DNA from: an uncultured delta proteobacterium
GTDB lineage: Bacteria; Desulfobacterota; Binatia; DP-6
Direction of reading: 5' to 3'
Length of the DNA stretch: 64,000 nucleotides
Assembly: GCA_963851365.1 (NCBI GenBank)
Contig: CAWKPA010000003.1
Span: 64,390 to 128,389 of the forward strand
Position 1 is the first letter of the stretch; each line of letters begins with the position of its first letter. This document shows, piece after piece, positions 5,513-35,243 of the stretch. The translations under genes and the position numbers were made by a program. The notes beneath the pieces are model-generated. The model had not been told where the DNA came from, did no database searches, and saw only the letters and a list, made by a program, of their open reading frames with translations.

Positions 5513-6330
5513 GTGATGTCTCTGGAGATCGCCGAGGGAACCTTCGACTACATGCGGTGGTTCCCTGAGGGGAACAAGGCCGCCCTCTACCGACCACCGG
5601 AAGCAGCGCCAGCGCCCCGGATCCCCACGGTTTCAGAGTACGCGGAGCACACCTGGCTGCCGCGGAAGGTTCCCCCGACCGTGCGTGCGAGCCTCGCCGA
5701 CACCTACCGGTGGGCGCTTCGGCACATCCTGGGTGGCCGACGAAGGTCGATCCCGAGCCCGACCCCTTCACCGAGGAGGAGCAAGACCTGCTCATCGACT
5801 ATTTCACCAACCGGAACCAGCATTATCTGGCCCTCGTCGTGACGATGTTCCGCACCGGGCTCCGGACGGGGGAAGCATGCGGCCTGCGGTGGGGGGACAT
5901 CGACCTGCGCGGCAGGAAGTTGACCGTGCGTCGGTCCCGCACCATGGGCGAGGACAACCCGCCGAAGACCCGGAAGAGCCGTCGGACGATCACTCTGCTG
6001 GAGAACGTCGTCGCAATGCTCAGGCGCGTGCAGCCGCTCCATGCCGGCCCGGACACCTTCGTGTTCGCCACGCAGCAGGGCACCCCACTCGACGGGGAGC
6101 GATTCGTGGAGAAACACTGGAGGCGGGCGCTCCGCGCGACCGGCGTGCGACCCCGGAAGTTCTACGCCACCCGCCACACGTTCATTTCGCTGGCCCTCAC
6201 GTGGGGTTTGAACCTCAAGTGGCTGGCCGACTACTGCGGAACGTCGGTGGAGATGATCGAGCGCCACTACGGCCGGTTCATGAACGCCGACTCGGGGCAG
6301 CTCGCGATTCTGGCAGGTCGCGGCGGATCG
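5513..6330 (+). pseudogene. tyrosine recombinase / phage integrase remnant (N-terminally truncated, one frame shift, apparent internal deletion)
   Basis: Frame 2 carries the SAM-like N-domain (EYAEHTWLPRKVP...ADTYRWALRHILG). Frame 1 carries the catalytic domain (RTGEACGLRWGDIDL, KSRRTITL, HATRHTFISLALTWG...MIERHYGRF). About 80 aa between the two domains are absent. It reads toward the tRNA-Ser 3' repeat at 6468-6494. Confidence 0.7.
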
Positions 6331-6467
6331 GGAGGACCGAGCGGCGAGCGTCAACCAATGGCAGCGACGGCGGGGCGTTCAACCCGTCCGGCGCGCGATT
6401 CCGCGCTCAAGACCGGAACCTTTGCCGGAACCTTTCGGAAGCCGCGCGTAACCTCGCGATCTACCAA

Positions 6468-6494
6468 AGCGGAGGGGGGGAGATTCGAACTCCC
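6468..6494 (-). repeat. 27-bp direct repeat identical to the 3' end of tRNA-Ser (T-arm plus acceptor 3' strand), the distal att site of the island
   Basis: agcggagggggggagattcgaactccc is identical to 35242-35268. No matching acceptor 5' strand (cccctcc) lies upstream, so it is a fragment and not a second tRNA gene. Imperfect similarity continues about 30 bp further left. Confidence 0.8.
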
Positions 6495-6882
6495 TTATCA
6501 GAAGATGCCGAGACGCGCCGGAAACGCTGGAAACCGTTGTGCCGCATGGGTTTCTTGCATCGCGAAGCCATTGGCCGAAAGAGGCCGAAAGCGGCCATTC
6601 TTGACCTAGAAGAGTGCACAAAAGGTGCACAGCAGCGACCGGATACGTGGCTCGTACCCACCCGGAATGAGCTCATGCCGCCCAAGATGCAGGCTGAAAC
6701 GAAGGGCTCGCACAGTGGTCGTCGCCTTGTGCAGGACGTCCTCGGACGCGACGAACTACATGGGGCAGGTGAGCTAGTCGCCACGGCATCCTACATGACA
6801 CTCGCCCCGAAACGACCAGCAAAAGTAGTCGAGGCGCAGGCTGCAGTGCTGCCGCCTGTGCGGGGTTGATCGGGACGGAGCA

Positions 6883-7125
6883 GTGGGGTCGATGCGGTGT
6901 GGCGGGATGACCATCCTCGATGCGCTCGCCGACCCGGCGTTGTTCGCGCCGCACTTCCGGATGCCGACGTGGGCGCCGTGGCGGACCGCCTCATCGAAGT
7001 TCTTATCCGCCCTCCCACATGATCGCGCGCAAATCCGGCCGGTCCACCGCGACGACGAAGCGCGGAAGACCATCTGCCTCGACGTCGCGCCGGAGCAGAA
7101 CGACGGCCAGCCCTGTTTGCCTTGA
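6883..7125 (+). other. short ORF with a possible phage terminase-large-subunit-like N-terminal motif; degraded
   Basis: MTILDALADPALFAPHFRMPTWAPWRTASSKFLSAL resembles the N-terminal segment of the terminase at 33154 (VVCDPVRFARGLL...). Downstream frames are broken and there is no clear domain. Confidence 0.15.
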
Positions 7126-8289
7126 AATCCTTGTCTGCCTCGTTCCCCTTGCGGATGATCCCGATGGTCACGTCCTGTGGGCGCTGACGAACTCGATGGT
7201 GACTGGTTGGACGTTGATCAACCTGGCGGCATCCTCCGAACAGACCCGCAGCTCGGTGGAGTTCAGCGGAGAAGGATACCAACCGCGATAGGCTCGTTCG
7301 ACGAGATGGCGGGACTGCACGAGGTCGTTCCAGATGGCGGCGGGGATATGTACACAGGCGACGCCCCCCTCATCGGGACCTCCGCGTACCAGGGCATTTG
7401 CGGAATGATTGTAGACCGTATCGAGGCGGCCGCGGGATCACGCGACATCAGTCCGCCGGCGCCGACGTCTTGCGATCGCAGGAACTGACCGGCCACCAAG
7501 CGCACATTGCTCTGCACACCCCGATAGACGAGCATCTTTGTGCCGATGCAGGGCGGCGGTGGCGTCAGCAGCCAGATTGGTGGCGGGCTTTCGCTCGGCC
7601 GCAGCGGGCGTAAGGGCATGACGACCTCCGCGTCAGGATTTCGTCGCAGCCTAGCAAGCGAGAAGGCGTCCCCACAACTCATCCTCGTCATCCGGAGGAT
7701 TGTCAGCCACCTCGGGCTCCCCTGATGGCCGACGCATCCTCGTCGGAACACCCTGCCCGCCCCGCCCGCCCACGACTCGACGCAGCTCGCGGCGCACCTG
7801 CAATCGCTGCTCATGGACCTCGGGCTGGAACGCCGGGCGAAGCCGGTGCCCGACTTGCAGTCCTAGCTCGCGGCGAAGGGCACCGGCGGGGAGCCGATCT
7901 CGAGACCCGGGTCGTGCAGCGCACCGGCAGCATCGTCTTGGTCGCGCACTGGGAGCCCGGCGTGGTGGAGTTCGCCGTCTACGACGAGGCGGTCCAACCC
8001 GAGCGGGTCGAGCACTGCGGAGCGGGCATTGCGGACTGGCGGATCGACCCGCGCGCACCGGTGTTCCGTCGCTGGCAGTGATTTCTGGGATCGCGGAACC
8101 GCTCACCGACCGCGTGTATGAGCTCTCGCCGCGCCGCCCACTGATTGCACCTGGCCATCGCTGGCCTCCTCGGTCCCGCTGGTAGCGGATTCCGTGAGGC
8201 AACGGCCCGCGCTCGGTAACGAATCAGCTGCGGCAATGCGATGGAGAGATGTAATTGTCGCTCGGCGCCCCTCGCGCGACTGAGCTTCT

Positions 8290-8697
8290 CTACATGACGC
8301 GCTTGCAGTCGAAGGTGTCGCCAGACTCCAGCGAATGCCATGTCATGGTCTTAGCCCTCACATCGAAGAGCGAGAACGCGTACCCGTCCTCCAACGTGAT
8401 CCGAAAATCGGGGCCCTCTGGCCCGTCAGACTCCGACCGCTCAACCTTCTGAATTCGTATCGGGCCGCTATCGGTGCCGACCCGGTAGTGCGTGGTGCTG
8501 AACGTGAACTCAGACACCTCGCAATCCCACGTCCCGACGAAGGGGTACGCTTCGGCAACAGATATCGAAGCCACCTGTCTCACATTCGGGTCGGGGCGAG
8601 CAGGACCGGCAACACCCCCTCCGAGACATGCAACGAGCACGATAGCGCAGGCCATGGCGGACGCGCTTCCCGAGATATGCCATTGGCCCCTACGCAT
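8290..8697 (-). CDS. small lipoprotein, hypothetical
   Basis: MRRGQWHISGSASAMACAIVLVAC has a lipobox (LVAC). About 135 aa. It lies in a locally AT-richer patch. Confidence 0.45.
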   Translation of the reverse strand: MRRGQWHISGSASAMACAIVLVACLGGGVAGPARPDPNVRQVASISVAEAYPFVGTWDCEVSEFTFSTTHYRVGTDSGPIRIQKVERSESDGPEGPDFRITLEDGYAFSLFDVRAKTMTWHSLESGDTFDCKRVM

Positions 8698-9030
8698 TGC
8701 GGGCGCAGCGCGCAAAGGGCGGTCGTGGAGTATGGTTGCAGGAGCCGTCGAGGTGGCACCCAACTGCCCCGGAAATCGGACCTTTCAACCCGCCCGCCGG
8801 GGTCATGATTGCACGCCGAAGGGGGTCAAACTTCGCCGCCGATTCACAGTGATGCCAGCCGGAATCATGGGCGCCCCCTAGAACAACCCGTCGCGGACGG
8901 CAATCCGGCCCTCTGGTCTGCAGCAACCGGAGTCTGCGCGGAACAACGGAGCCGACCGGCCAGGTGGCGGATCGTGCAGCGAGAGAGCCGGGCCGCCCCC
9001 GGCTCCACTTCCGCCTCGCCGAACATCCTT

Positions 9031-10023
9031 CTAGACCAGAACTCGACAATCAGACGTGGGCCCGCCTAGGCTAGCGGGCGCAGCGGAAGCCGAAGTCGAC
9101 GAGCTGCGCACGACGGCTCGAAGAGCCGTAGACGACGAGCGGGCCGGCAACGGCCCGCCGTCGAAGAGGAAGTCGCCGCCGCGCAGCAGCGCACCGGGCT
9201 CCCCCGTCGTGGCCGCCCCCGCCAGGCACTGGTAGTCGCCCGTCGGGCTCACGCCGGCGCTCCACGTCCCGCACGCCGTCGAGCGCGGCACCCAGTCCGC
9301 CACCCACTCGTAGAGGTTCCCCACCATGTCGAACGCCCCGCGCGCCGACTTGCAGCTGCTGCGCGACCCGGTGGGGACCGCCGAAAGGCAGCTGCGCGTG
9401 TTGCAGTCCGTCGTGCCGTTGTCCGGCCCTGGGTCCGGCGTCCCGATCACCGCCGCCTGCCACTCCGCGTTCGACGGCAGCCGCTTGCGCGCGTTCTCGC
9501 ACGCCGCCTGCGCCTGGAACCAGGTGATGTACGCCGACGGCGTCACCCCCGGCAGGCTCACCGCGTAGATGTCGTCGGTGCAGTTCTGCCCGCTGTCGGC
9601 GCACGGCGCGTAGTCGTCGGTGAAGCCGATCCCGAGCTGCGTCGCGCCGCCCGCCACGAGATCAACGAGCGTCGCGGTGCCCCCCTGAACTTGCTGCACA
9701 AGCGTCGTGGCACCCGGCGGGATCCGCCACACGCTGGCTTCGTACTTGTCGATGCAGATGTCGCCGGATCGGACCGAGTCCGGTGGGCACGGGCGTTCCC
9801 ACTCCCATACCAACGGCCCCGGCTCCCCTGGGTCTCCCTTGTCGCCCTTTGGTCCTTGCAGACCGAGGGCCACGGGATCGAGCTGCGTTTCCGTTGGTCG
9901 GCACGCTTCGCGCAGCTTGATCGAGGTGTTGTAGGTGCCGTCGCTGCGGGGCTTGGCACAGAGCACCACCGCGTCGGCTGCGGATACGCCGAGCACGGCA
10001 GAGAGCAGCATCGTCGCCAACAA
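9031..10023 (-). CDS. secreted protein with collagen-like G-X-Y repeat and FGE-sulfatase (SUMF1-like / C-type-lectin-fold) domain
   Basis: Signal peptide MLATMLLSAVLGVSAADA. GPKGDKGDPGEPGP collagen triplets. C-terminal CENARKRLPSNAEWQAAV...FDMVGNLYEWVADW is the FGE-sulfatase domain signature. Confidence 0.65.
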   Translation of the reverse strand: MLATMLLSAVLGVSAADAVVLCAKPRSDGTYNTSIKLREACRPTETQLDPVALGLQGPKGDKGDPGEPGPLVWEWERPCPPDSVRSGDICIDKYEASVWRIPPGATTLVQQVQGGTATLVDLVAGGATQLGIGFTDDYAPCADSGQNCTDDIYAVSLPGVTPSAYITWFQAQAACENARKRLPSNAEWQAAVIGTPDPGPDNGTTDCNTRSCLSAVPTGSRSSCKSARGAFDMVGNLYEWVADWVPRSTACGTWSAGVSPTGDYQCLAGAATTGEPGALLRGGDFLFDGGPLPARSSSTALRAVVRSSSTSASAAPASLGGPTSDCRVLV

Positions 10024-10063
10024 GAGTTCATCGACGCCCCCCTATCTCTCGGCGTGAGGCCGG

Positions 10064-10990
10064 CTACGGCTCCACCGGCACCGGCCGGCAGACGTCGTCC
10101 GCTGGGTTCGCTCGGTCCACGCGGTCCACGAAGCAGTCGGCGTCGCGGCCGCGCATTGTCGGCTCGTCGTTTCTCCAGTCTGCCTTCTTGCAGGCGCGCG
10201 CACCCGTTCGCGTTGTCACATCGATCCGGGCGCAGAACTGGGTGACCGAGCAGCCGGCGTCGTCCACCGGGTCTCCAGCGGCAGTGCCAGGGCAGCGGTC
10301 GGTGGCGTTGGTCTCCCCGTCACCGTCGGCGTCAGGCAGAGGCTGAGACTCACACGCCGCAAGGTCCTGTTGGCAGATGCCGAGATTCGTCTCGCACTGC
10401 GCCTGCTCGTTGTCGCGGTCGTTGGGGAAGGGGTCGCAGGCGTCACCGATCAGATCGAATCTGCGTCCTCCTGGCTGGGGTTCGGTTCGTTCGGGCAATT
10501 GTCAGCGTAGTCGGGTACACTATCGTTGTCGGTGTCTGGTGAACTGGTCGACTCCGCATTCACAAAGATTGTGGAGAAGCCGCTGATGGTTAGGTTCTCC
10601 GTGGACAATTGAACCTGATTCCCAGCCTCATCCCTCAATATAAGCAACAGGATCGTATAGGGTCCAAGCGGACTGTACTGCGGCAACGTGACTCTGCAGT
10701 TCTGAACCGAATCCAGGACGGTCCCCGATACGATCACGCAGAAAGGTGCTCCAGACCCGCCCCCAATTGGGCTTCGGTACACCCAACCCGCGTTGTCACC
10801 CGTAAAGCCGGAGAGATTGTCGAGAATCTCAATCGGTAAGGAGATGTCGGCGGGTCCGTTGGTCGTATCCACTACTGGGGTGTTGATGACCAGATCGGAC
10901 CAGCACCGGCGGCGTCGTGTCCTCCTGCGCCTCCACGCGAAGCGGCGCGATCAGGCTAACCGCCAGCAGGACTGCCAAGGAGCGTTCGGG
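10064..10990 (-). CDS. secreted thrombospondin type-3 repeat (TSP3) protein; reading frame broken at least twice (probable indel errors)
   Basis: TSP3 Ca-binding repeats DTDNDSVPDYADNCPNEPNPSQEDAD and DADGDGETNATDRCPGTAAGDPVDDAGCS. A signal-peptide-like LAVLLAVSLIAPLRVEAQ sits near 10960 in an adjacent frame. Confidence 0.5.
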
Positions 10991-11010
10991 TCATCGGCAT
11001 GCCCTCCCTT

Positions 11011-12094
11011 TTAGCGCGTCAGGAGCCACCCCGCACCGCGCGAACGCAGGTTGGGACTCCGTCTTGAAGCCCGCGTCGACGCTCCCGTCGCCGAAGTACA
11101 CGTCCCACGCGACTCCGGGTCAGCCTGGTAGGTAGTGGACGACCAGTAGTAATCGGACTGCGTGCACGAACACGTCATCACCGTGCACGCCGCGACGCAG
11201 CCCGTGTTGAACGCGGCGACACGGACGGGTTCACCGCCCCGTAGTTCACGAGGCTCTGCAGTTCGTTCACGTTCGGCAGCCGCCAGTCGGTGTAGCCCGC
11301 GAAGCCGCCGCCCGCCGTTCAGCGCCGCCACCTTGTCGCGAACGCGTTCGCCCAGGTGTACGTCGTGTCCTTGTCGTGGATGCTGCCGTCGTCCGACAGC
11401 TTCTCCCACATGAGCCCGGTCTTCGTGTCGGTGATCGTGCCGTCGCCGTTGTCCACGTAGGCGCGCGCGAGCCCCTTCTGCAGCTCGCCGTCCTGGCCCG
11501 TGCCGGCGCACGCGATGACCGCGCCGGCCGCGTCCCAGCACTGCGTCTGGCCGGTCTTCAGCCGCTGCCCCTGCGGCGCGGCCTGGCAGGTCGCCAGGTC
11601 GTTCTGGCAGGCGTCAGGTGCCGTGCAGGCGTGAGGCTGCCCTGCGTCGCGGTGAGGTCGATCTGGCAGGTGCCGAGATCGCCCGTGCAGTGCCGAGGTC
11701 GCCCTGACAGCGCGAGCAGGTCGCCCGGGCAGTCCGGCAGCACCCCGCCCGCCAGCGCCGTCGCCACGTTCGTCGTGTGCGTGTCGATCGCCCCCTGGAT
11801 CGCCTCTTGGTCGCCGGTGGTCTGGCACATCCCGCCCGCCTTCGACTCCAACAGCGGCCACTTCACGGCAAGCTTATAGGCGCACTTCTCCAGCGCGAGC
11901 TGGTAGGCGGCCGCGTCGCCCCTGGTGGCGAACCTCGCCTCGGCCTTATAGCGGCAGTTGGCGTAGCGGCCAGCTTCTTTGTTCTTGCTCGCCTGGCACG
12001 TCTGCGCGGGACTCACGGCGTCCGCCACGCGGGCTACTGCGCCGAGCCCCAGCACGAGCACGAGCATCGCGCCGACGCGCACCCTGGTTGCCAT
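11011..12094 (-). CDS. secreted DUF1566 (Lcl C-terminal domain) protein; split over three frames
   Basis: N-terminal signal [29 protein letters not shown]1566 core [31 protein letters not shown]...DYYWSSTTY. The ORF track splits it at 11011-11541, 11319-11861 and 11558-12364. Confidence 0.5.
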
Positions 12095-12110
12095 CGCACC
12101 CTCCCGTCGG

Positions 12111-12212
12111 GAGCGTAGGCGCGATAAAGCGGCGAAGGGCGACATAACGCCCGAACCCGGACGTTGGCGGTCCTGTCCCGCCCTGTCTCCCCTCACCCCC
12201 CCGGTTGCCGCG
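12111..12212. repeat. REP-X: ~100-bp GC-rich interspersed repeat with two 5-bp stem hairpins (copy 1, intact)
   Basis: agcgtaggcgcgataaagcggcgaagggcgacataacgcccgaacccggacgttggcggtcctgtcccgccctgtctcccctcacccccccggttgccgcgg. It recurs at 16064-16165. Copies at 20893 and 26380 are split by an IS. Confidence 0.7.
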
Positions 12213-12283
12213 GAATGGTCTGGCAGTGGATCGCCGTCGCGGTCACCTGATCGATCGGCATGCGAAGCGCCTCGATGTCCGCC

Positions 12284-12370
12284 GCCGTCACCGTCGCCGT
12301 CGTTACGGAAGGGCAGCGGTCGGGTAGACGCGCCGGGCGGCAGGCTGGTAGGGGTTGAGGGCAACTCGCC
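12284..12370. repeat. ~85-bp inverted repeat, left copy, flanking sulfatase/hydrolase module 1
   Basis: gttacggaagggcagcggtcgggtagacgcgccgggcggcaggctggtaggggttgagggcaactcgcccttttgaatcctct is the reverse complement of 15250-15335. A shorter relative is at 12412-12470. Confidence 0.7.
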
Positions 12371-12479
12371 CTTTTGAATCCTCTATCGGCTTTCGCCGAG
12401 AGCCGATGTGCGGTCGCTATTACGGAACGGCAGCGATCGGGTAGACGCGCCGGGCGGCAGGTTCGTAGCGACCGCCGCC

Positions 12480-13481
12480 TCAGACGCTGCGATAGCCGCC
12501 GTTCACCCAGGCAAGCAGCATCTCGGCGAACTCCTCGGCGTTGTCCTGGTAGCTGAAGTGGCCGCAGCGTTCGAAGATGCGCAGTTGACTGCGCTTCAGC
12601 CGCTGGTGCAGGCGCCGGGCATTCTCTTCAAGCAAAAACACGTCGAGGTCACCCCAGAAGATCTGCACCGGAAGGTCGAGGCCGGCCAGGTGGGGGTCCA
12701 CGGTTGCCAGGTTCTCGGGGTAGGTCTTGAACCAGTAGGTGATCGGACCCATCCGGCCGTCGTAGGAAGCGACGTAGTCGGCCACCTCGGCGGCATGGGG
12801 CACGTAGTTCACGCAGGCCAGACGGTAGGCCCCTTCGACAAAGGCCTGGGCGCCCGCGACACGGAAGATCGTGCGCCAGAAGCCGGAGTCGACGGCCTTG
12901 TTGATGATGCTGCCGTTGCTCGTCGGCAGGATGCCCGGGCCGTCACCAATCAGCAGGCTGGCCAGCTCGTGCTTCTGGTGGATCGCGTAGTGCAGCGCGG
13001 CGGCCATGCCGACGTCGGGCCCTACCATGTGGATATGCTTGAGCCCGAGCTCGCGCACGAACTCGACGAGGAAGCGGCTCTGCGCCTCGAAGCTCATGAA
13101 CTCCAGCCCGCCGCTGCTGCGGCCGAAGCCGGGCAGGTCGAGCGCGACCAGCCGGCAATGCGGCGCGAGCGTGCCCCAGATCGCGTCGAAGCACAGGATG
13201 CTCTGCGGCAGCGGGCACAACAACAGCACGACCGGCCCGTCCTTCCTTCCGCCCTGCGCGATGCGCACCTGGGTGCCGGCCACCGTGCGCATCTCGGTCT
13301 TCATGGTGAACCGGGCCGGGCGCGATTCGGCCCGGCCGGCGCCGGGGCGTGCCGCCTGCTTGATCTGCGAGAACTCCGGTGTCACGGCGAGCAGCACGCC
13401 GGCGTTGAGCTTGCCGAAAGGTCCGATCGGGTCGGGGGTGGTTTCCATGCGCGTCTCGATCTCTGGGATGGAGCGGATCAA
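12480..13481 (-). CDS. alpha/beta hydrolase fold protein (paralog 1)
   Basis: 333 aa: LLLCPLPQSILCFDAIWGTLAPHCRLVALDLPGFGRS...HMVGPDVGMAAALHY...ERCGHFSYQD. About 80% identical to the protein at 25347-26315. Confidence 0.75.
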   Translation of the reverse strand: MIRSIPEIETRMETTPDPIGPFGKLNAGVLLAVTPEFSQIKQAARPGAGRAESRPARFTMKTEMRTVAGTQVRIAQGGRKDGPVVLLLCPLPQSILCFDAIWGTLAPHCRLVALDLPGFGRSSGGLEFMSFEAQSRFLVEFVRELGLKHIHMVGPDVGMAAALHYAIHQKHELASLLIGDGPGILPTSNGSIINKAVDSGFWRTIFRVAGAQAFVEGAYRLACVNYVPHAAEVADYVASYDGRMGPITYWFKTYPENLATVDPHLAGLDLPVQIFWGDLDVFLLEENARRLHQRLKRSQLRIFERCGHFSYQDNAEEFAEMLLAWVNGGYRSV

Positions 13482-15248
13482 GGCTTACGGCCATCGGGCT
13501 CGATGAAGCCGTGCCACGGGCTCCAGTTGTCGGCGACCGGCACGAGGCCCTTCTGGGCAGCGAACTGGTCGTAGATGGCGATCAGCTTCTTCAGCCGCTC
13601 GGGTTGCGCGGCGTCGAGCGGCTGCGTTTCGCCCGGGTCGTTGCGAATGTCGTACAGGTGCCACTGGCCGTCGCCGTACATGCCCGGTCGCACCCGCATC
13701 GCCTTGTAGTCGCCGGCCACGACATAGCCGTTGCCGAACAGCTCGAAGACCACTGGCTGCGCTTCGGTGCGCGGCTGCTCGGCCCGGCCTTCGAGGAAGC
13801 TGCGCATCGAGACGCCAGAAGGCGCGGCGATCTTGCGGCCCCGGTAGCCCTGCGGCGCCGGCTGGACCCCGGCGTAGTCCAGGATCGTCATCGGCAGGTC
13901 CTTGACGTTCGCGTACTCGGCGCTCAACTGCCCGCGACGTGGGGACGGCTGGCTCCGCGGCGGGACCACGATCAGCGGCGTGCGCACGCCGCCTTCACCG
14001 ATGAACCACTTCCACCACGACAGGCCGCCGGTCACGGCATTGGCGAAGTCGGTGCCGATGAAGGCGTAGGAATCGCCCCAGCCGATGTGCTCGAAGGCCT
14101 GGCTGAAATTCGCGCTGCACCCACTTCGTGGCGCCCGGATTGCTGAGCGCGCCCTGGTCGTCGAAGCCCTCGGGGCCGTTGTCGGACAGGTAGACGATCA
14201 GCGTGTTGTCGAGCTGGCCGGTCTCGCGCAGGTAGTTCAGCAGCAGGCCGATGTGATGGTCCTGCGACTCCATCATCGCCGCGTAGGTGGCCATGACGCG
14301 CGCGAAGCGCCGCTTGTCGTCCTCGCTCAGCGACGACCAGCTGCGCAACAGGTGGTTCTTGCCGGCGTCGGGATACGGCGCGTCCTTCGGGAGGATCCCG
14401 AGCCGCTTCTGCGCCTCGAAGCGTTCGCGCTTCAGGCCCTCGAAGCCGAGCGCGTAGAAGTGCTGCTCGTACTTGTCGACCAGGAAGTCCGGCGCCTGCA
14501 CCGGCGCATGCGGCGTGGTGTAGGCGACGTAGGCGAAGAACGGCTTGCCGGTTGGGCGGCCCTGCTCCAGGTAGCTGAGCAGCTTGGCCGTGTACAGGTC
14601 GTCGGAGAAGATGCCCGTGGGGCGCACGACCCGCTCGCCGTTCTCGAAGTAGGGCTCCCTCGGGATCCTTCCGGCCTTGACGTCGGCGGCGGCTTGCGGG
14701 TCCTCGAGGTCGACGTGGAACACGCCGTCGTTCCAGTGGTTCGCGCCGCCGGTATAGATCCCGTAGCTGCGGTCGAAGCCCCACTGGGCAGGCGGCTCGC
14801 CGCCGTGGCGCGTGCCACCGAGGTGCCATTTGCCGACCATGTAGGTGCGGTAACCGGCGTCTTTCAGCAGCTCGGCGATGGTGGCCGTGGTGCGGGTCAG
14901 GTAGGCCTCGTAGCCGCGCTTGCCCTTGGCGCCGGGATAGAGCGAGTAGTCGAACGCGGCGAGCCCGATCTCAACCGGGTTGTTGCCCGTCAGCAGCATG
15001 GCGCGCGTGACCGAGCAGACCGGCGAGGCATGAAAGCGCGTGAACGTGGTCCCGTGCTGGGCCAGACGGTCGATGGTCGGCGTGCGAGTCGCCGCTCCGG
15101 TGAAACCGAAGTCTCCGAACGCGGCGTCGTCGGCGACGATCAGCAGGACGTTCGGCCTCGTTTCCGACGCTGTCTGTGCGTGCGCGGGCGCTGTTGGGGT
15201 GCAGAAACAGGCCCACGCGGCCAACAAAAACAGGGTCAAGGATCTCAT
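13478..15248 (-). CDS. sulfatase-family (alkaline-phosphatase superfamily) enzyme, paralog 1; split across two frames near 14000-14050
   Basis: Signal peptide, then NVLLIVADDAAFGDF...FTRFHASPVCSVTRAMLLTGNNP...YMVGKWHLGG. The C-terminal half is in ORF 13478-14035. About 80% aa identical to 23551-25311. The active-site pentapeptide is C-S-V-T-R, not the canonical C-x-P-x-R. Confidence 0.75.
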
Positions 15249-15249
15249 C

Positions 15250-15335
15250 GGGAGCGGATAGAGGATTCAAAAGGGCGAGTTGCCGTCAACCCCTACCAGC
15301 CTACCGCCCGGCGCGTCTACCCGATCGGTGCCCTT
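15250..15335. repeat. ~85-bp inverted repeat, right copy
   Basis: Reverse complement of 12284-12370. Confidence 0.7.
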
Positions 15336-15608
15336 CCGTAACGGAAGTTGGAGAGCGGTCTGCCGATTCGAGCTCGCGGGAACAGCGGTCGGCATACAGC
15401 AAGAGTCTCGATCTCGAGCTTGGCCCCCGCATTCCTTTGGGGCCGGGATGCGGAGCTTCAGCTCGAGGGCCCCTTTGCCACGCGCTTCGCGACGCGTCTG
15501 AGCTCGATATCACCTTGCCCCCTATGGACGTGCCCCGGTACCATTACACGGTAGCCACCCAGCCAGAGGTGTACAATGCCTAGATGCAGTCCCCGGACCG
15601 CCTCCTGC

Positions 15609-16070
15609 ATGGCTCGCGGCGCAGTCGCCCTCGCGATCGTCTGGTTCGTAGCAGTGTCGGGACAGGCTCGGGCGATTCCTCTGACGGATTGCACGGAGCG
15701 TATGGAGGGCGTTTTCACAAGCGCGAGTGGGGCGCGCAATCCGCTGCGACTCCGCATCGTGGTCACGGGCCCCGGGTTCGCCCTGTCGGGACGTTTCCGC
15801 TGCCGGCGCGGCTCCGCCGGTCGATGTGTAGTGCCGGTGGCGAGCGTCGACGGTCACCTGGTCGGGGATGCCGCGACGACGCGTTATCAGGTGTCCTTGT
15901 CTCGCGGCCACGGGGACGCGTATCGGCTGCTCTGCCGGCTGGACGGCACGGCACCGTTTCTCTTCGGCCTCTACCTCCCAGCTCTTGAGGGTACCTACAC
16001 CTGCGATGACGGTGGGGGATTGAGTGACCGGGGCACGTTTCAGCTCGTGGGTGTGGGCCGGGGTGCGTAG
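15609..16070 (+). CDS. hypothetical small secreted protein
   Basis: MARGAVALAIVWFVAVSGQARA is a signal peptide. Cys-rich, about 150 aa. No recognised domain. Confidence 0.3.
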   Translation: MARGAVALAIVWFVAVSGQARAIPLTDCTERMEGVFTSASGARNPLRLRIVVTGPGFALSGRFRCRRGSAGRCVVPVASVDGHLVGDAATTRYQVSLSRGHGDAYRLLCRLDGTAPFLFGLYLPALEGTYTCDDGGGLSDRGTFQLVGVGRGA

Positions 16071-16165
16071 GCGCGATAAAGCGGCGAAAGGCGACATAAC
16101 GCCCGAACCCGGACGTTGGCGGTCCTGTCCCGCCCTGTCTCCCCTCACCCCCCCGGTTGCCGCGG
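16064..16165. repeat. REP-X copy 2 (intact)
   Basis: Near-identical to 12111-12212. Confidence 0.7.
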
Positions 16166-16416
16166 TCGTGCGCTTCCACGGCCGTCGGCGCGAGACGTGG
16201 ACCAGGCCAGGCGTCGGCACGACCGAGCGCTTCCGCCACCGCTACACGGACGCGGAGCTCTCGGAGTGGGTTCCGCGCCTCCGCGCGCTGGCGGCCTCCA
16301 CGGGCCGCGTCTACGCCCTCATGAACAACTGCCACGGGGACGACGCGGTACGAGGAGCGAAGGATCTTGCCAGGCTCCTTGCAGAGGAAGAGGGCGGTTT
16401 TCTATAGGTACCAGTC

Positions 16417-19400
16417 ATGGTCCGGTTGTCGATTCGTCTCGAGGTTCTCATCGGTCTGCTCTCGCTCGTCCTCTTCGCGCCCATCCGGGGCATCGCCGCC
16501 GTCGAGTGTCCTCCGGCGCGCTATCTCGTACCGGACGGCTCGCCGGCCGCCGTGATCGAAGTGCTGGACGACGGCACGGTGGCGGTCGAAGGCGTGTGTC
16601 CTCCCATTCCTGCGAAGCTGAAGGGCAAGCGGCGCGTGCAGAAGGTGCGCGCCACGTGGCCCAAGGATGCGTGCCAGGGGCTTACCGGCAAGGTGAAGCT
16701 CAGGGCGAAGATCGACGAGACGTGTGGTACGCTTCGCGGCAAGCTACGCGCGAAGAAGCTTCGGCAGAAGTTCCTCGCGTCGGTCTCCCGATGCGACGAT
16801 GGTTTGCTCGATCCGCCGGTCGATGGAGCCTGTCCGCTGCTGGAGGGTCCGGGCGATGCGCTCGCGGTGGACGCGGTGCTCGACATGGATCGCGAGGACG
16901 GCGTGCCCGACGCCGAGCTGGAAGGCGACGAGGCCGACGGAATGGTCGCCCGCACGCGGCTCGAGGTCGAGATCATGCCGGACGCGACGGTCGGGCAGGT
17001 GAACGCCGCGATCGCCGAGGTGAGCGGCGAGGTGCTGCTCTCGATCCGCGGCATGCCGTTTCTCCTCGTTCGCATCCCCGACCCGGGAACCCGTGCGGCG
17101 CTGGATGACGTGGTCGCCACCATGGCGGGCATGCCTGGCATCGCGACGGTCTTGCCTGGTGCGGTGCCCGGCCCCGATGCGCTCCCGGCGAACTACGCGC
17201 CGATCACCGGCGCGGACCTCGGGCGCATCGACCATCATCTCGCCGTCCGGGCGCCCGCGGCGTGGAACGCGCAGGCGGCTGCGGTGGCGAACGTGAACGT
17301 CGTCGTGGCGGACCTGTTCGGGGGCGGTCCTCCGAACGGCGATCTCACCGCGACCATCACGTCGGCGGACTTCGCGACGGGTGCGCTCAGGGATCACGGC
17401 TACCATGTCTCCGGCATCGTCACGGGACGTTTCGGTGGGACGGCGTGTACGGGCGCGATCGGAACCACCGGCGCCGCCGGACGCGGCTGCGTGACCGGGA
17501 TGTATCCGGGGACGCCGCGGCTGCCCGTGGTCGATCTCCGGCTCGGCCTGACCGACCTCGCGGTGCAGAAACGCATTCTGGATCGCGTGTCGCTCGCGAC
17601 GGGGCCCGTCGTGGTCAACACGAGCCTCAACGACTGCGGGGACGGCGCGTGCGGCAACGCGGCGATCGCGGCCATTCTCGCGCGCCGGTGGGTCACCCTG
17701 GTGCGCGACATGGGGCTCGAAGAGCGGTTCCTGCACGTCACGACCTCGGGAAACATCAAGCTGCAGGCGCCGAGCGTCATCGACGCGCAGACGAACAGCG
17801 CGTACAGCGCGGCGGCGCTGCTGCCCGGTCTCACCACGGTGTTCGGCTTCGAGCTTCCGAACCTCACGAACCTCCTCGTCGTCGACAACGTCGCGAACGG
17901 TCCGGGGCCCGATTTCGCCCCGGTGTGCATGGACGAGACGTCGAAACGGGGCGGAACCATCAGCGGGATCGGCGCGGGGACCGGCGCGGGCTCCGGCGAC
18001 GACGTCTGGTCGTTCGCCGATGCGACACAGGCGAGCCGCTTCGCCGGTGGTACGTCGATGGCCGCGCCGCAGGTGAGCGGTCTCGCGGCATACCTCTGGA
18101 GCGTCGATCCAGGCATGACGGTCGCGGAGATGCAGTCGGCGTTGCTCCAGACGGCGCGTCCCGTCGTGCCGTCCACGACGGCCGGCGACTGCGCCGCCGC
18201 GGGCGTGGTGCCGGCGCCCATCATCGACGCCTACGACGCCATCCTCTCGCTCGATGCCGCGGAGCCGCCCGATCCGATCGTCGCGACCGTGCGCCACGCC
18301 ATCATGGATCACGACGGCGACGGGCGGTTCGACGACGCCGACGTGCGGGCGTTTCTGACCGCGTACTTCGATGGCTTCGTGTCGGCCGAACAGCCCGGTG
18401 CGCCCGTCGAGCCGATCGACCGGACCTTCGGTCGCGAAGATCTGAACGGCGACGGTTTCGTCGGCGGTGCGCGCACCGATGCCTTCGATCTCGATCGCGT
18501 GGACTCGGTGCAGTACGGCGTGAGCGGGTACGGTCTCGTCCAGCAGGGCGTCGAGAACGGGGTCGCGACCTTCGACGAGGCCGCGGTGACCGACCTCGAC
18601 GTCCTGTGCTTCTACGCGTACTCGGACCTCTACGAGGGAGCGTCCGCCGCCCGCACGACGCTCCTCGGGTCGGCGATCTGCAATCCCATCCGGCTGCTGA
18701 TCGGCTTTCCGTCCACGGTCGAGGTCGCCGTCCCCGAGGTGCTCTCCGTCGAGGTGCTCCGCGAGGATCCGCAGCTCGGCAGCGTGCCGCTCGCGGGGGC
18801 GCTCGTCGAGATCGACGTGCTCGGGGGGAACGCGCTGGCCGGCGACGGCGTGACGGACGGGCAAGGGCGGTTCGAGACGGAAGTGGCCGCGGACGGTAGC
18901 GCCTCGCCGATGCGGATCGTGGCGCGCGTTCGTGACGTTCCCGAGGGGCCGGTGCTGGTCGAGGGCTTCGTCGATGCGACGATCGCGACGACCACCACGA
19001 CCACGTCGACCACGCTCCCGCCGGGCAGCTCCTTCGTGTGTCACGATGCAGAAGTAGCCGAGCGCGAGGTGCCGTGGCAGGGATTCGGTGAAGACTGCGA
19101 TCCGTTTCCCGGCTGCGGATGCGAGGAGCGCTGCAGCCCCAGCCCGGACATCGAGCTCGAGGTCACCCAAGACGAGACGGAGCTGGTGGCCGCGTTTCGA
19201 AGGCGCTCCGGGGCAAGCCCCATCGCATTTTCCGGTGGCGCCGTGGAAAACGTCCTCACGATGGATCAGGTCGACGGGGACCTGCATCTCGTGGCAACAC
19301 TGCGATCCGACGGCGTGCTGGCCGGGCGGATCGATCGGGACTTCTTGTGCAACGGGTTCGTCTGTAAGAACGGTTGGGACTTCGAGCTCGGCTGCGGGGC

Positions 19401-20148
19401 CTCCCCGACGACGACGTCGAGCACGACGCTCGCCACGACCACCACCACCACCAGCAGCACCACCACCACGTCGACGACGGAGACGACGACCCCCACCACC
19501 AGTACGACGACGACCACGACGGCGACGTTGCCGCCGGGCGCCGGCTTCGACTACCGGCTCTACCCGGCCACGGGGCCCGACGCGCCCTCGGTCACCCTCG
19601 TCGACGAGTTCCGCAACGAGACCGTCGACCTCGATGCCGTCGACTTCCACCTGGCGCCGTCCGGCATTGGCGGGGCGTTCCCGGTCGATCCGAGGTCGGA
19701 CCTCACATGCTACCAGCACCCGGGCGCGGTCTTCTCCGGGAGCGCGAGCGTGGTGAATCGCTTCTCGGCGAATACGCAGGCGCTCACGCTGACGGGCCCG
19801 ATCGCGACCTGCGTGCCACGGGACGATGCGCTGGTGCAGGTGGATCATTTCACCTGCTATGGAGCGAGCGGGTCCAGCGTCGATACGCCGCTCACGATCT
19901 TCGATCGATTCCAGAGCGAGAGCGTGACCGTCGGTGCGCCGACGCTCTACTGCACGCCGACGGACAAGAACGGCGAGGGCGTGCTCGTCCCACCGACGCC
20001 GCAGGTCGTCTGCTATGGGGCGACGCCCCAGGGTGCGGCTCCAGGCGGGTTCGAGGTGACCAACCAGTTCCACACGGCGCCGCTGGACCTCGCCGCTCCG
20101 GCGGCGCTCTGCGTCAGCTCCTTCGTCGAGAGCGTGAGCGGGAGCTGA
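16417..20148 (+). CDS. large secreted subtilisin-like serine peptidase (S8 family), 1243 aa, with Thr-rich linkers and dockerin/EF-hand-like Ca-binding repeats
   Basis: Catalytic motifs: Asp NVVVADLF, His HGYHVSGIVTG, Ser GTSMAAPQVSG. N-terminal signal. Poly-Thr linkers (ATTTTTTSTT, TTTSSTTLATTTTTTSSTTTTSTTETTTPTTSTTTTTT). DHDGDGRFDDADVRAF and NGDGFVGGARTD repeats. Confidence 0.85.
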   Translation: MVRLSIRLEVLIGLLSLVLFAPIRGIAAVECPPARYLVPDGSPAAVIEVLDDGTVAVEGVCPPIPAKLKGKRRVQKVRATWPKDACQGLTGKVKLRAKIDETCGTLRGKLRAKKLRQKFLASVSRCDDGLLDPPVDGACPLLEGPGDALAVDAVLDMDREDGVPDAELEGDEADGMVARTRLEVEIMPDATVGQVNAAIAEVSGEVLLSIRGMPFLLVRIPDPGTRAALDDVVATMAGMPGIATVLPGAVPGPDALPANYAPITGADLGRIDHHLAVRAPAAWNAQAAAVANVNVVVADLFGGGPPNGDLTATITSADFATGALRDHGYHVSGIVTGRFGGTACTGAIGTTGAAGRGCVTGMYPGTPRLPVVDLRLGLTDLAVQKRILDRVSLATGPVVVNTSLNDCGDGACGNAAIAAILARRWVTLVRDMGLEERFLHVTTSGNIKLQAPSVIDAQTNSAYSAAALLPGLTTVFGFELPNLTNLLVVDNVANGPGPDFAPVCMDETSKRGGTISGIGAGTGAGSGDDVWSFADATQASRFAGGTSMAAPQVSGLAAYLWSVDPGMTVAEMQSALLQTARPVVPSTTAGDCAAAGVVPAPIIDAYDAILSLDAAEPPDPIVATVRHAIMDHDGDGRFDDADVRAFLTAYFDGFVSAEQPGAPVEPIDRTFGREDLNGDGFVGGARTDAFDLDRVDSVQYGVSGYGLVQQGVENGVATFDEAAVTDLDVLCFYAYSDLYEGASAARTTLLGSAICNPIRLLIGFPSTVEVAVPEVLSVEVLREDPQLGSVPLAGALVEIDVLGGNALAGDGVTDGQGRFETEVAADGSASPMRIVARVRDVPEGPVLVEGFVDATIATTTTTTSTTLPPGSSFVCHDAEVAEREVPWQGFGEDCDPFPGCGCEERCSPSPDIELEVTQDETELVAAFRRRSGASPIAFSGGAVENVLTMDQVDGDLHLVATLRSDGVLAGRIDRDFLCNGFVCKNGWDFELGCGASPTTTSSTTLATTTTTTSSTTTTSTTETTTPTTSTTTTTTATLPPGAGFDYRLYPATGPDAPSVTLVDEFRNETVDLDAVDFHLAPSGIGGAFPVDPRSDLTCYQHPGAVFSGSASVVNRFSANTQALTLTGPIATCVPRDDALVQVDHFTCYGASGSSVDTPLTIFDRFQSESVTVGAPTLYCTPTDKNGEGVLVPPTPQVVCYGATPQGAAPGGFEVTNQFHTAPLDLAAPAALCVSSFVESVSGS

Positions 20149-20828: not shown

Positions 20829-20946
20829 AACGGGATCTGCTTCGCATCGGTCTGCTGCTCGGCGTCGTGGGCATCGCCCCATGGGTGAGCGGAGCGTAGG
20901 CGCGATAAAGCGGCGAAGGGCGACATAACGCCCGAACCCAGACGTT

Positions 20947-22440
20947 GACGTGTAGGCCCCAAGTGCAAATGTCCGGTTTCTCCAAAGTAGAGATGTCCGC
21001 CTGGACCCCACAGTGCCGGGTGCCATGGCGACGACCGTGGGGCTGACCATGGGGGAACTGGACCGCCTGCAGATCCTGACCCGGCTCGCCGAGCGGCGGC
21101 TGACGCAGCGCGCGGGCGGCCGCGCTGCTCGCGGCTGAGCGAGCGCCAGGTGCGGCGGCTCTATCGGCGCGTTCCAGGACGACGGCGCGGCGGCGCTGGC
21201 CTCGCGGCGGCGCGGTCGCCCGAGCAATCGGCGGCTGCCCGCGCGCGTCCGCGACCGGGCACTGCGCGCTGGTCCGCGCGCGCTACGCCGACTTCGGGCC
21301 GACCTTCGCGCACCAGAAGCTCACCGAGGACCACGACCTCGTCCTGTCGGTCGAGACGCTGCGCGGCTGGATGATCGCCGCCGGGCTCTGGGTGCCGCGC
21401 GTCCAGCGCGCCCGCCGGAGCTATCCGCCGCGGCCGCGCCGCGCGTGTCCCGGCGAGCTCGTCCAGATCGACGGCTCCGACGCACGCCTGGTTCGAAGAC
21501 CGCGGGCCCGTCTGCACGCTGCTCGTCTACGTCGACGACGCCACCAGCCGGCTGATGGAGCTCTGCTTCGCCGACGGTCGAGTCGACGTTCGACTACTTC
21601 CGCGCGACGCGCCGCTACCTCGAGCGCCACGGCAAGCCGATGGCCTTCTACAGCGACCGGCTGAGCGTCTTCCACGTCCAGGCCCGCGACCGCGCCCAGG
21701 GCGGCGCCCGGGCTGTCGCAGTTCGGCCGGGCGTGCAGGCCCTCAACATCGACCTCTGTGCGCCAACAGCCCGGAGGCCAAGGGCCGCGTCGAACGCGCC
21801 AACGGCACGCTGCAGGACCGGCTCGTGAAGGAGCTGCGGCTCCGCGGGCTCAACGATCCCGTCGCGGCCACGCCGTTCCTCCCCGCGTTCATGGCCGACT
21901 ACAATCGCCGCTTCGCCAAGCCGCCCGCCGTCGCCTACGACGCGCATCGGCCGCTGCGCCCGGCGGACGACCTCGACCAGGTCTTCACGCTGCAGACGAC
22001 GCGCCGGATCAGCCGCCAGCTCACCGTGCACTACAAGCGCGACCTCTACGTGCTCACCGACACCGTCGCGACTCGCCGCCTGCGCGGGGCCACCGTGGAC
22101 GTCCGCGAGGCGGAGGACGGCACCGTCACGTTGCACGCCCAGGGCGCGTCCGCTGGCGGCCCGCCTCTTCCCGAAAGATCACGCGCAGATCGCTCCGGGA
22201 GCCGTCGTCGCGTACCCGCATCTCGACGGCGCCTTCGACCTGGATCGCGGCGCAGCAGCGCGAGCGCGACCAGGCGCGGCTCGCCAATCCCAAGCTCAGC
22301 GCGGCGCGAGAAGCAGCGGCTGCGCGCGGGCCGGCCGCTGCGTGTCCCGGCCTCCCCCACGGAGTGAAACCGGACATCTCTACTTGGGGCAAAGGCGGAC
22401 ATTTCTACTTTGTGTTGACATGACATGACATGACATGACG
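20947..22440 (+). mobile_element. ISNCY-family (IS1202-like) insertion sequence, copy A; transposase reading frame heavily disrupted
   Basis: The ends are shared with copy B: left gacgtgtaggccccaagtgcaaatgtccg..aaagtagagatgtccg, right ...ctactttgtgttgac(atgac)4. Transposase fragments MATTVGLTMGELDRLQILTRLAERRL, GELVQIDGSDA, FYSDRLSVFHV, AKGRVERANGTLQDRLVKELRLRGL sit in several frames (21025-22367). It is inserted inside a REP-X copy (20893-20946 and 22441-22471). Confidence 0.7.
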
Positions 22441-22648
22441 ACCCTACCTCCCCCCCCGGGGCTGCCGCGGACGAAGACGCAGGCGATGCTGCCGAGCGAG
22501 GACGCGGTGCTCTTGCTCCTCTTCGGCCTCCTGATGAGCGGGCAGATTCGCTCGCGCAAGATCGACGGCTGGCAGGAGCTGCCGGCGGTCATGGCGACGC
22601 GGAGAAAGGCTGCGTAGCCGCGGATATCAACTCGGACTCACGCGCGGA

Positions 22649-23563
22649 GTGATGACCGGACCTTTTCCACACGTTGACAGACACGACCGCATGGCGTACG
22701 CGCCTACCGTGCAGGCGGAGGCGGGGTTCACCCACCATGCACTGCGGCACTTCTCCGGAAATCTCGGTGCCCCGCAGACCGATCCGTTGTCGCACGCCGA
22801 CGTGTACGCTGGCCTGCAGGCAGCCATCGGCGTGCTGGCTGCATTGCGCCAGCGCGAGCGCACCGGCCGCGGCCAGCACATCGACGTCGCGATGGCAGCC
22901 ACGATCATGGCCATCAATGAGCGTGCACACGTTGACCTGAGCGGCCTGGACATCGGGGACGAGCCCGCAATTCTCGGCGCGACCGACGGCTCGTTCTTCA
23001 AGGGGCCCGGCGTCGAGACCTTCGTTTCGGCCATCAGCCTGGTCGGAACGATCACGTTCCGTTTCTTCATGGCTGCAATGCGACGGCCGGACCTTGCGCA
23101 GGACACGCGTTTTACCACCCCGGGTGCGCGACGGGCGAACCTGGATGCGTTGAGGGCGATCGTGCAGGCGTGGATCTACTCGTTCCCGGACCTCGCGGCG
23201 CTGGATGCGCAGCTCGACGAGGCGAAGATCGCCATCGGCGAGATCCGCTCACCCGAGCACGTGGCGGACAGCGAGTGGGCCGAGTACTGGACGGCCACGC
23301 ATCGCGTCTCCGACCGCAATGGTGGCGATTTCCGCCTGCCCGGGCGGCCCTGGAAGTTCTCGGCCGCGGAACTCGATCCCCCAGGTGAGCCCGCGCTGCA
23401 GGGCGAGCACAACGCAGAGGTCTGCACGCTGCTCGGCCTCGATGCGCAGGAAACGGAGCGGCTCGCGCACTCCGGAGCGCTGGTCGGGAATTTCGCGGCG
23501 CAGATGATTGCGGTGGTTCTCGGTGAATCGAATTCTGCTGGAGCGACTGAATGCGAACATTGA
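22649..23563 (+). pseudogene. CoA-transferase family III (CaiB/BaiF-like), N-terminally truncated
   Basis: GLQAAIGVLAALRQRERTGRGQHIDVAMAATIM... matches the central and C-terminal regions of family III CoA transferases. The expected ~100-aa N-terminal glycine-rich region is absent. It starts just downstream of IS copy A. Confidence 0.55.
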
Positions 23564-25311: not shown

Positions 25312-25346
25312 GTCACGTCATTCAACCCAATGGAATTCACGCAGCC

Positions 25347-26315: not shown

Positions 26316-26433
26316 GCGGGCGCACCAGCTCTGTACAAACATAGAGGCAGCATGACCGATACGTACCAGACTGATTCGGAGCGTAGGCGCGATAAAGCGG
26401 CGAAGGGCGACATAACGCCCGAACCCAGACGTT

Positions 26434-27918: not shown

Positions 27919-28179
27919 GCCCCGACGCCCCTCCCCCCCCGGCTGCCGCGGCGAAGCCACAACGAGGAACGGCCGCATCGGGCGCTGGGGCGGAAGCCCC
28001 CACGCACTTTCTCCCGCGGCCGTCGGAACCCCGAGAGTCCAGGAATGCGGTGTCTACTTGACGGGGCTGACTACGCCTCGGCCGGCCTGTTGGCGAACAC
28101 GTAGTCGTACGACTCGACTGACGGATTCGGTGCGCGAGGGCCAACGCGAGGCATCCTCAGATGATCCGAGAGGCTGGAG

Positions 28180-33747: not shown

Positions 33748-33762
33748 CGCAGGACAGCGGAG

Positions 33763-35241: not shown

Positions 35242-35243
35242 AG

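Follow-up and report, generated by a model that had tools for sequence, protein, structure and literature searches.

The subject of this study is a two-gene module encoding a sulfatase and an alpha/beta hydrolase in a 64,000-nucleotide (nt) stretch of contig CAWKPA010000003.1 from an uncultured delta proteobacterium (called the window here; all positions are counted from its first letter). This module (module 1; genes sulf1 and abh1) has a counterpart in the same window (module 2; genes sulf2 and abh2). The best explanation, which we consider probable, is that it is one of two copies of a widely conserved, uncharacterized sulfatase-hydrolase operon and was brought in by mobile DNA. The operon combines a motif-variant type I sulfatase with an Asp-nucleophile hydrolase; the kind of enzyme is known, the variant is new, and the mobile-DNA context is ordinary.

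Two sulfatase-hydrolase modules in opposite orientation

Module 1 occupies positions 12480-15248 on the minus strand and module 2 positions 23551-26315 on the plus strand. They comprise the following genes:

13478-15248, minus strand: sulf1, sulfatase similar to the Pseudomonas aeruginosa arylsulfatase (PAS), motif C-S-V-T-R; repaired product of 589 amino acids (aa)
12480-13448, minus strand: abh1, alpha/beta hydrolase of 322 aa, nucleophile elbow G-P-D-V-G-M
23551-25311, plus strand: sulf2, intact sulfatase of 586 aa, motif C-S-I-T-R
25347-26315, plus strand: abh2, alpha/beta hydrolase of 322 aa, nucleophile elbow G-P-D-V-G-M, AlphaFold model with a pLDDT of 94

An earlier note on this DNA had described two such two-gene modules in opposite orientation, and this layout stands, with Pfam matches of the products to Sulfatase and Abhydrolase_1/6. 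Several details had to be revised. The DNA of the two arms is 76 to 80% identical, and the proteins, for which a pairwise identity of about 80% had been given, are 75.4% (sulfatases, after repair of a frameshift in sulf1) and 71.7% (hydrolases) identical. The sulfatase of module 1, which had been taken as a single gene at 13478-15248, is split by a +1 frameshift into two open reading frames (ORFs; 13995-15248 and 13478-14035); alignment with module 2 located the cause in one extra T in the TTT run at 14106-14108. The frameshifted gene is either a pseudogene or an assembly error. For abh1, which had been extended to a TTG at 13481, the ATG at 13448 is the most likely start; it gives a product of 322 aa, the same length as that of abh2. 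The intergenic gap between sulfatase and hydrolase is 29 nt in module 1 and 35 nt in module 2. Since sulf1 is frameshifted and no recognizable Shine-Dalgarno sequence was found for module 1, this copy is probably decaying.

A PAS-like sulfatase with valine or isoleucine in the maturation motif

Judged from its sequence, the product of the first gene is a Cys-type, calcium-dependent type I sulfatase of the alkaline phosphatase superfamily. It matched the Pfam profile Sulfatase (PF00884) from end to end (profile positions 1-301 of 301) with 170.5 bits at a cut-off of 25, and the closest solved structure was PAS (1HDH), with an E value of 1e-105 over residues 29-571. The PAS residues D13, D14, C51, R55, and K113 align to D39, D40, C77, R81, and K139, and H115, H211, D317, N318, and K375 align to H141, H246, D355, N356, and K412. 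Indeed, all PAS-equivalent calcium-ligand and catalytic residues were invariant in an alignment of 22 sequences (A1). With PAS/AtsA (SulfAtlas S1, S1_4), the window enzymes share the full-length match, the calcium ligands, the nucleophile Cys, the counterparts of Arg55, Lys113, His115, His211, and Lys375, and the C-terminal subdomain. They differ from PAS, which has C-S-P-T-R and is cytoplasmic, in having C-S-V/I-T-R and a signal-peptide-like N-terminal extension of about 28 aa, and also in being encoded with a hydrolase partner, a feature not described for atsA. By inspection, the N terminus looks like a Sec-type signal peptide, and export of the sulfatase is predicted.

The non-canonical motifs reported before, CSVTR in module 1 and CSITR in module 2, were found again. 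Neither fits the maturation motif of S1 sulfatases, C/S-x-P/A-x-R (updated PS00523), because the +2 residue is Val in sulf1 and Ile in sulf2. This is no sequencing artifact, as had rightly been expected, since the residue is conserved over the nearest clusters and in more than 60 genome loci. In a first scan of the 120 nearest 90%-identity clusters, CSVTR was present in 72, CSVSR in 29, CSITR in 8, and CSISR in 3, so that 112 of the 120 had V or I at +2; the remainder consisted of one cluster with CSATR, one with CSPTR, and six that were not matched by the search pattern, five of which show CSVTR or CSITR by eye. The genome loci with C-S-[V/I]-[T/S]-R came from at least six phyla and included Gamma-, Delta-, Alpha-, and Betaproteobacteria, Planctomycetota, Acidobacteriota, Gemmatimonadota, and Bacteroidota.

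How rare the variant is can be seen from more distant relatives. When 1.84 billion representatives were searched with a profile, the best-scoring clusters carried V/I, and CSPTR and CAPTR dominated below about 500 bits. The +2 residue of the 139 sequences from this search that had a recognizable motif was P in 114, T in 8, V in 7, I, L, A, and Q in 2 each, and K and S in 1 each. About 18% of the PAS-like 50%-identity clusters were non-Pro at this position. Across 4058 S1 sulfatases, Pro has been found at +2 of C-x-P-x-R in 87%, Ala in 9%, and any other residue in <1%, and the updated SulfAtlas pattern permits [PA] alone (PMC5066984). Thus, the V/I variant is rare, and the proline, which had been called invariant, is not. 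A literature search on the motif strings CSVTR, CSITR, and CXVXR yielded no relevant paper. In the sequences compared, C-S-[V/I]-[T/S]-R is a clade-wide trait and a rare, uncharacterized variant. Distant sulfatase genes in four of the related loci (L067, L074, L076, and L077) have other non-proline motifs, C-T-T-T-R and C-T-A-G-R; departures from C-x-P-x-R are therefore not restricted to the V/I clade.

Could the V/I motif mark enzymes that lack formylglycine (FGly) and use a thiol or an unmodified residue as the nucleophile, or even catalytically dead binding proteins? The +2 residue lies outside the published [PA] consensus (PMC5066984). Moreover, the formylglycine-generating enzyme (FGE) is described for CXPXR sulfatases, with anSME serving SXPXR and CXAXR sulfatases (PMC2459300), and a regular-expression scan for the FGE motif R-G-G-S...C-x4-C in six-frame translations of the window and 79 related loci gave no hit. 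However, the clade invariantly retains the Cys, the Arg, and every residue that in PAS holds the FGly hydrate, the sulfate, or the calcium ion, which is hard to explain without the standard chemistry. In the clade and its neighbors, the +2 residue itself can be V, I, A, T, or P, so that the position looks tolerant rather than mechanistically decisive. Furthermore, maturase genes are commonly unlinked to sulfatase genes. Enzymes working without FGly are for these reasons an improbable explanation of the motif.

A conserved Asp-nucleophile hydrolase partner

The earlier suggestion that the pairing with a hydrolase is conserved was borne out across phyla by the gene neighborhoods of homologues. 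Loci with a sulfatase at least 60% identical to sulf2 were taken as informative (n = 55), and the partner hydrolase was present in 51 of these 55. It lay directly downstream on the same strand in 48 of the 51, and the gap between the two genes in the relatives was mostly 26 to 81 nt. In Gammaproteobacterial relatives (L001/L002/L023, about 6800-13740), the pair is embedded in a longer array: AraC, then enoyl-CoA hydratase - CoA-transferase III - sulfatase - Asp-hydrolase - second alpha/beta hydrolase. This gene order, with an enoyl-CoA hydratase and a CoA-transferase, suggests that the pair serves to break down a sulfated organic acid. An LtrA-family gene separates the sulfatase gene from the hydrolase gene in several Pirellulaceae. 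Isolates with the pair include Bythopirellula polymerisocia Pla144 (L012) and Tateyamaria pelophila DSM 17270 (L035).

The hydrolase matched the Pfam families Abhydrolase_1/6. Its elbow, G-P-D-[VI]-G-M, was invariant in 47 of 47 sequences, C-G-H and D269 were conserved, and in an alignment to PlaF the elbow Asp occupied the position of the nucleophile Ser. The nearest structural neighbors of the AlphaFold model in Foldseek were dehalogenases, Cif-like hydrolases, and epoxide hydrolases, with TM scores of 0.7 to 0.8 at about 21% identity. The partner resembles haloalkane dehalogenases and epoxide hydrolases, including the Cif-like enzymes, in the elbow Asp, the His base, the conserved acid, and the helical cap, and it is an apparently cytoplasmic Asp-nucleophile alpha/beta hydrolase with an invariant Asp-His-Asp triad. 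It is set apart from these enzymes by the low identity (about 21%) and by the residue after the nucleophile, which is V or I in 47 of 47 sequences and not the halide-stabilizing or oxyanion Trp. The model NF002938 gave 58 bits at a cut-off of 241, and all NCBIfam dehalogenase scores were far below their cut-offs. At the site of the epoxide hydrolase motif H-G-x-P, the end of the strand in the partner reads C-P-L-P-Q-S, a comparison that covers the strand end only; P79, L80, P81, and S83 of this segment are invariant, and Q82 is at least 90% conserved.

The modules were acquired separately and lie in mobile DNA

Both modules are more closely related to sequences of other organisms than to each other. 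The product of sulf2 is 91% identical to P0001 and that of abh2 98% identical to P0125 (L001/L002-type); abh1 is 96.6% identical to the metagenome protein P0190 and sulf1 80% identical to P0003. These relationships argue for xenologs acquired separately and not for a local duplication. The description of the modules as diverged paralogs is therefore abandoned: abh1 reaches 97% with P0190, and the DNA of the module 2 passenger is 90% identical over 3.7 kb to Gammaproteobacteria metagenome-assembled genomes (MAGs). On the basis of these identities, the two modules are xenologs from separate acquisitions associated with an insertion sequence (IS). The IS copies and repeats around the modules are as follows:

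20890-22476, plus strand: ISNCY copy A, degenerate, no intact transposase ORF
22649-23563, plus strand: CoA-transferase family III gene, 5'-truncated (Pfam profile positions 128-366 of 366), part of the module 2 passenger
26377-27956, plus strand: ISNCY copy B, intact transposase of 463 aa at 26511-27902
12109-12213, plus strand: miniature ISNCY derivative of 105 bp, left IS end (about 60 nt) joined to right IS end (about 35 nt)
16061-16165, plus strand: second copy of the 105-bp miniature ISNCY derivative, direct orientation, 2 mismatches to the first
12301-12387, plus strand: repeat copy A, 87 nt, inverted relative to copy C, 4 mismatches to C
12420-12468, plus strand: repeat half copy B, first 49 nt of the unit, 92% identical to A and 90% to C
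15257-15343, minus strand: repeat copy C, 87 nt, outer end CGTTACGG

Module 2 had been said to ride a composite transposon, and the anatomy agrees with this. Two direct ISNCY copies, one with an intact transposase (NF033594, 435 bits at a cut-off of 250), flank the module. The two copies are 94% identical, with 94 mismatches and 16 indels (15 of a single base and one of 2 nt) that lie mostly outside homopolymer runs. The passenger (22688-26378) showed uninterrupted 90% DNA identity to loci in three Gammaproteobacteria MAGs; it starts inside the Gammaproteobacterial CoA-transferase gene and stops exactly at the boundary of IS copy B. The passenger has a GC content of 63% (module 2, 62%), compared with 67% in the surrounding island and 72% in the core part of the window. 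The likeness to composite transposons thus lies in the two direct IS copies and in the passenger, for which the homology to a donor-like locus breaks off at the edge of the IS.

Around module 1, the same ISNCY appears in reduced form. The two 105-bp direct repeats, which are missing from the account in the earlier note, lie outside the 87-nt repeats and are derived from the IS whose full copies flank module 2: about 60 nt are 97% identical to the ISNCY left end and about 35 nt are 86% identical to the right end. Both IS termini are retained and the internal coding part is deleted, as in IS-derived miniature inverted-repeat transposable elements (MITEs). What separates the arrangement in the window from composite transposons and MITEs is that one IS is degenerate and that neither target-site duplications nor clear terminal inverted repeats were found.

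Inside the 105-bp bracket, module 1 is enclosed by the 87-nt repeats. The inverted repeats reported before are real; their coordinates have shifted to 12301-12387 and 15257-15343, and they are not perfect, having 4 mismatches in 85 to 87 nt (95% identity). The extended arms of 104 nt are 90% complementary, and a 21-nt core of the repeat occurs 3 times in the window (0.06 expected). The inner end of copy C lies 8 nt upstream of the sulf1 ATG and the inner end of half copy B 11 nt after the abh1 stop; the bracket thus fits very closely around both genes, and its CGTTACGG ends point outward. On a metagenome contig that is 96% identical to module 1 (L089), homology stops no more than 1 nt from the inner end of half copy B, so that the repeats indeed mark a rearrangement boundary. 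In an 80%-identical relative (L090) and in module 2-like loci, the order is CoA-transferase - sulfatase - hydrolase - second hydrolase; in module 1, the CoA-transferase/second-hydrolase context is gone on both sides.

An unrelated metagenome contig of lower GC content (Ga0209253_10098550; L088:2207-2297) contains a solo copy of the repeat, 98% identical over 91 nt. There it follows a DUF1254/DUF1214 gene and precedes, by about 30 nt, a gene with a signal-peptide-like start. Together with the boundary in L089, this solo copy argues that the repeat is a discrete, dispersed unit that marks cassette junctions. It was the sole true copy among 9 matches to the 21-nt core in a metagenome scan; the other 8 were chance matches in unrelated sequence, and in three of these (L081, L082, and L084) the opposite strand reads 'ARRVYP' inside ORFs. 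A scan of viral contigs with the other half of the repeat gave no match, and neither the repeat nor the miniature IS nor the IS itself had a Blast match in the 79 related sulfatase loci.

Candidate identities for the 87-nt repeat were examined as well. As an RNA element it was rejected, with no Rfam match at gathering or E-value thresholds and folding z-scores of -1.8 to +2.0. Consensus scans detected neither a sigma-70 promoter nor a terminator in it, and the repeat has no terminal inverted repeats and no conserved small ORF. A leader peptide was considered because a 16-aa ORF with a good Shine-Dalgarno sequence ends inside the repeat of L088, but copy C has no start codon in frame. Finally, the reverse strand can be read as a C-terminal tail of the hydrolase ('...YQPAARRVYP..'), but the hydrolase homologues have no such tail.

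Inverted repeats that are 95% identical, 2.87 kb apart, and tightly bracket a cassette invite another explanation, in which one module arose from the other in this genome and the 87-nt repeats flip module 1 as an invertible expression switch. Two tyrosine recombinase genes are present in the window, at 5710-6609 and 30622-31257. However, neither of them nor any other recombinase gene adjoins the repeats, a single orientation was observed, and a crossover within the repeats would leave the identical repeat sequence in front of sulf1. Moreover, each module is closer to sequences of other organisms than to its partner in the window, and the solo copy in L088 points to a dispersed element rather than a dedicated inversion site. 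We regard local duplication with a switch as quite unlikely.

The acquisition of both modules through mobile DNA fits into a wider picture: the first 35 kb or so of the window are an island rich in mobile DNA that ends at a tRNA-Ser gene (35243-35330, minus strand). Direct repeats of about 150 nt at 33613-33764 and 35108-35258 are 84 to 90% identical and lie 1.49 kb from each other. They look like att-type duplications at the island edge, and one overlaps with tRNA-Ser at its 3' end. Other features of the island are:

1662-2294, plus strand: Mutator-family transposase fragment, profile positions 205-377 of 379
5710-6609, plus strand: tyrosine recombinase (Phage_integrase) ORF
15576-16070, plus strand: 164-aa ORF between the miniature IS copies, signal-peptide-like start, no family match
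16165-16407, plus strand: DUF72 gene truncated by the miniature IS, C-terminal part remaining (Pfam profile positions 158-216 of 217)
28180-29223: Mrr-type restriction endonuclease ORF, adjoining the group II intron piece
29631-29744, minus strand: group II intron domain D1-D4-3, Rfam score of 37.7 bits (gathering score, 32)
30622-31257, minus strand: tyrosine recombinase (Phage_integrase) ORF

Between the modules, at 16417-20148 (plus strand), lies an ORF of 1243 aa with a subtilase S8 domain and a C-terminal DUF7450; at about 18987-19539 it contains a short series of CAC/GAC-rich repeats spaced 12 nt apart that encode a low-complexity stretch.

Substrate class and maturation

Phosphonate monoester hydrolases (PMHs) and phosphodiester hydrolases of the PMH/PehA class belong to the same superfamily as sulfatases and had been named as a candidate identity. 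Weak matches to them were indeed obtained (79 bits with the PehA model NF045661, E values of 1e-13 to 1e-12 with the PMH structures 2VQR and 2W8S), and PAS is described as promiscuous toward phosphate esters (bioRxiv 10.1101/327643). However, the full-length match to PAS is about 90 orders of magnitude better, and the PehA score is far under its cut-off of 900 bits. That the window proteins are PMH/PehA-type enzymes and not sulfatases is therefore very unlikely.

How the Cys of these sulfatases might be converted is suggested by comparison with known systems. By analogy with the anSME-matured CXAXR sulfatases, we infer that the V/I sulfatases are matured by a non-FGE route or by one of relaxed specificity. 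Like the C-x-A-x-R enzymes, they are of the Cys type and have a small hydrophobic residue in place of the +2 proline. They differ in that this residue is the beta-branched Val or Ile and in that several of the host lineages may be aerobic.

A candidate maturation gene lies in the window itself:

9031-10023, minus strand: ORF with an FGE-sulfatase domain, frameshift at about 9145-9150, signal-peptide-like start, five G-X-Y triplets

The presence of the FGE-sulfatase domain at 9031-10023, noted before, was confirmed by a Pfam match, which is partial (profile positions 88-225 of 255, 42.7 bits). Of the collagen-like N terminus that had been ascribed to this protein, just the five G-X-Y triplets are there, following the signal-peptide-like start. 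The canonical end of the family, GFRCAR*, is in another frame, with the stop at 9071 (9071-9183, minus strand). Frameshifts in both this ORF and sulf1 raise the question of assembly indels versus real gene decay.

That this protein, or else the hydrolase partner, is a dedicated maturation factor for the variant motif is suggested by proximity, the ORF being separated from module 1 (abh1 stop, 12480) by about 2.5 kb and from sulf1 by about 3.5 kb, and by the tight linkage of hydrolase and sulfatase in most genomes. However, the ORF reads RGGDFLFDGGP and has no catalytic Cys-x4-Cys pair in either frame, it matched real FGEs with an E value of about 1e-3 only, and it is frameshifted and appears to be secreted. 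The FGE motif was found in none of the 79 related loci, and V/I-motif subclades occur without the hydrolase. As far as we know from established enzymology, a hydrolytic Asp-His triad is unable to oxidize a thiol to an aldehyde. We consider a dedicated maturation factor of either kind highly implausible.

Proposed function of the operon

In the model that we favor, the Cys of the sulfatase would still be oxidized to FGly, by a maturase that tolerates a beta-branched +2 residue. Candidates would be an anSME-type radical S-adenosylmethionine (SAM) enzyme, as for C-x-A-x-R, or an unidentified FGE-independent system. In the periplasm, the sulfatase would then cleave a small sulfate ester through the usual FGly-hydrate mechanism. 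The hydrolase gene, 29 to 35 nt downstream, would be cotranscribed, and the hydrolase would most likely act either on the compound left after desulfation or on another electrophilic group of the same substrate. Two xenologous copies of this operon would have been brought by mobile DNA into the island of about 35 kb beside tRNA-Ser: module 2 would have arrived between two ISNCY copies with a piece of its native CoA-transferase neighbor, and module 1 would have been trimmed to exactly two genes within the tight 87-nt inverted repeats and the looser bracket of 105-bp miniature ISNCY elements.

Several observations weigh against this model. First, the pairing has exceptions: a CSITR subclade of the Halioglobus type (51% identity) and a CSVSR subclade lack the hydrolase, and one hydrolase lineage (P0259) has no sulfatase in its available flanks. 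Motif and partner are thus not mutually dependent. Second, both the formation of FGly at the sulfatase Cys and the enzyme that forms it are predicted by analogy, and no maturase gene was conserved beside the pair in the related loci, among which no search aimed at anSME was made. Third, sulfate esters are a predicted substrate class, and the sulfatase signal peptide and the placement of the hydrolase in the cytoplasm are predictions made by eye. Fourth, inspection of the ends of the IS, the miniature IS, and the 87-nt repeat, the IS termini being uncertain, revealed no target-site duplications, and therefore transposition as a unit is not demonstrated. Finally, the frameshift in sulf1 may be an assembly error; the 515-kb contig is from a MAG, and many sulfatase frames are broken in the related MAG loci.

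A more far-reaching interpretation is conceivable, and we hold it only tentatively. The V/I enzymes could form a large, phylogenetically broad clade of exported, PAS-like sulfatases that is matured by a system other than the copper FGE (a radical-SAM enzyme of the anSME type or a 'third' system) and that works with its dedicated hydrolase in an undescribed pathway for sulfated organics. Independently of this, the 87-nt repeat could represent the terminus of a small nonautonomous element of a new kind, one that excises and moves exact gene cassettes.

The sulfatase-hydrolase operon has implications for the annotation and the biochemistry of the family. Maturation of sulfatases is usually predicted from C/S-x-P/A-x-R, and annotation that relies on this motif would overlook or mis-score members of the V/I clade. 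The clade is abundant in metagenomes from sediment, soil, and the sea, and a word-indexed search matched 3197 proteins at E<=1e-20. It offers a test case for the reach of FGE and anSME specificity and possibly a handle on FGE-independent maturation. The conserved pairing defines a two-enzyme target for the discovery of a new catabolic route for sulfate esters, encoded on a cassette that is being moved between phyla by IS-derived DNA.

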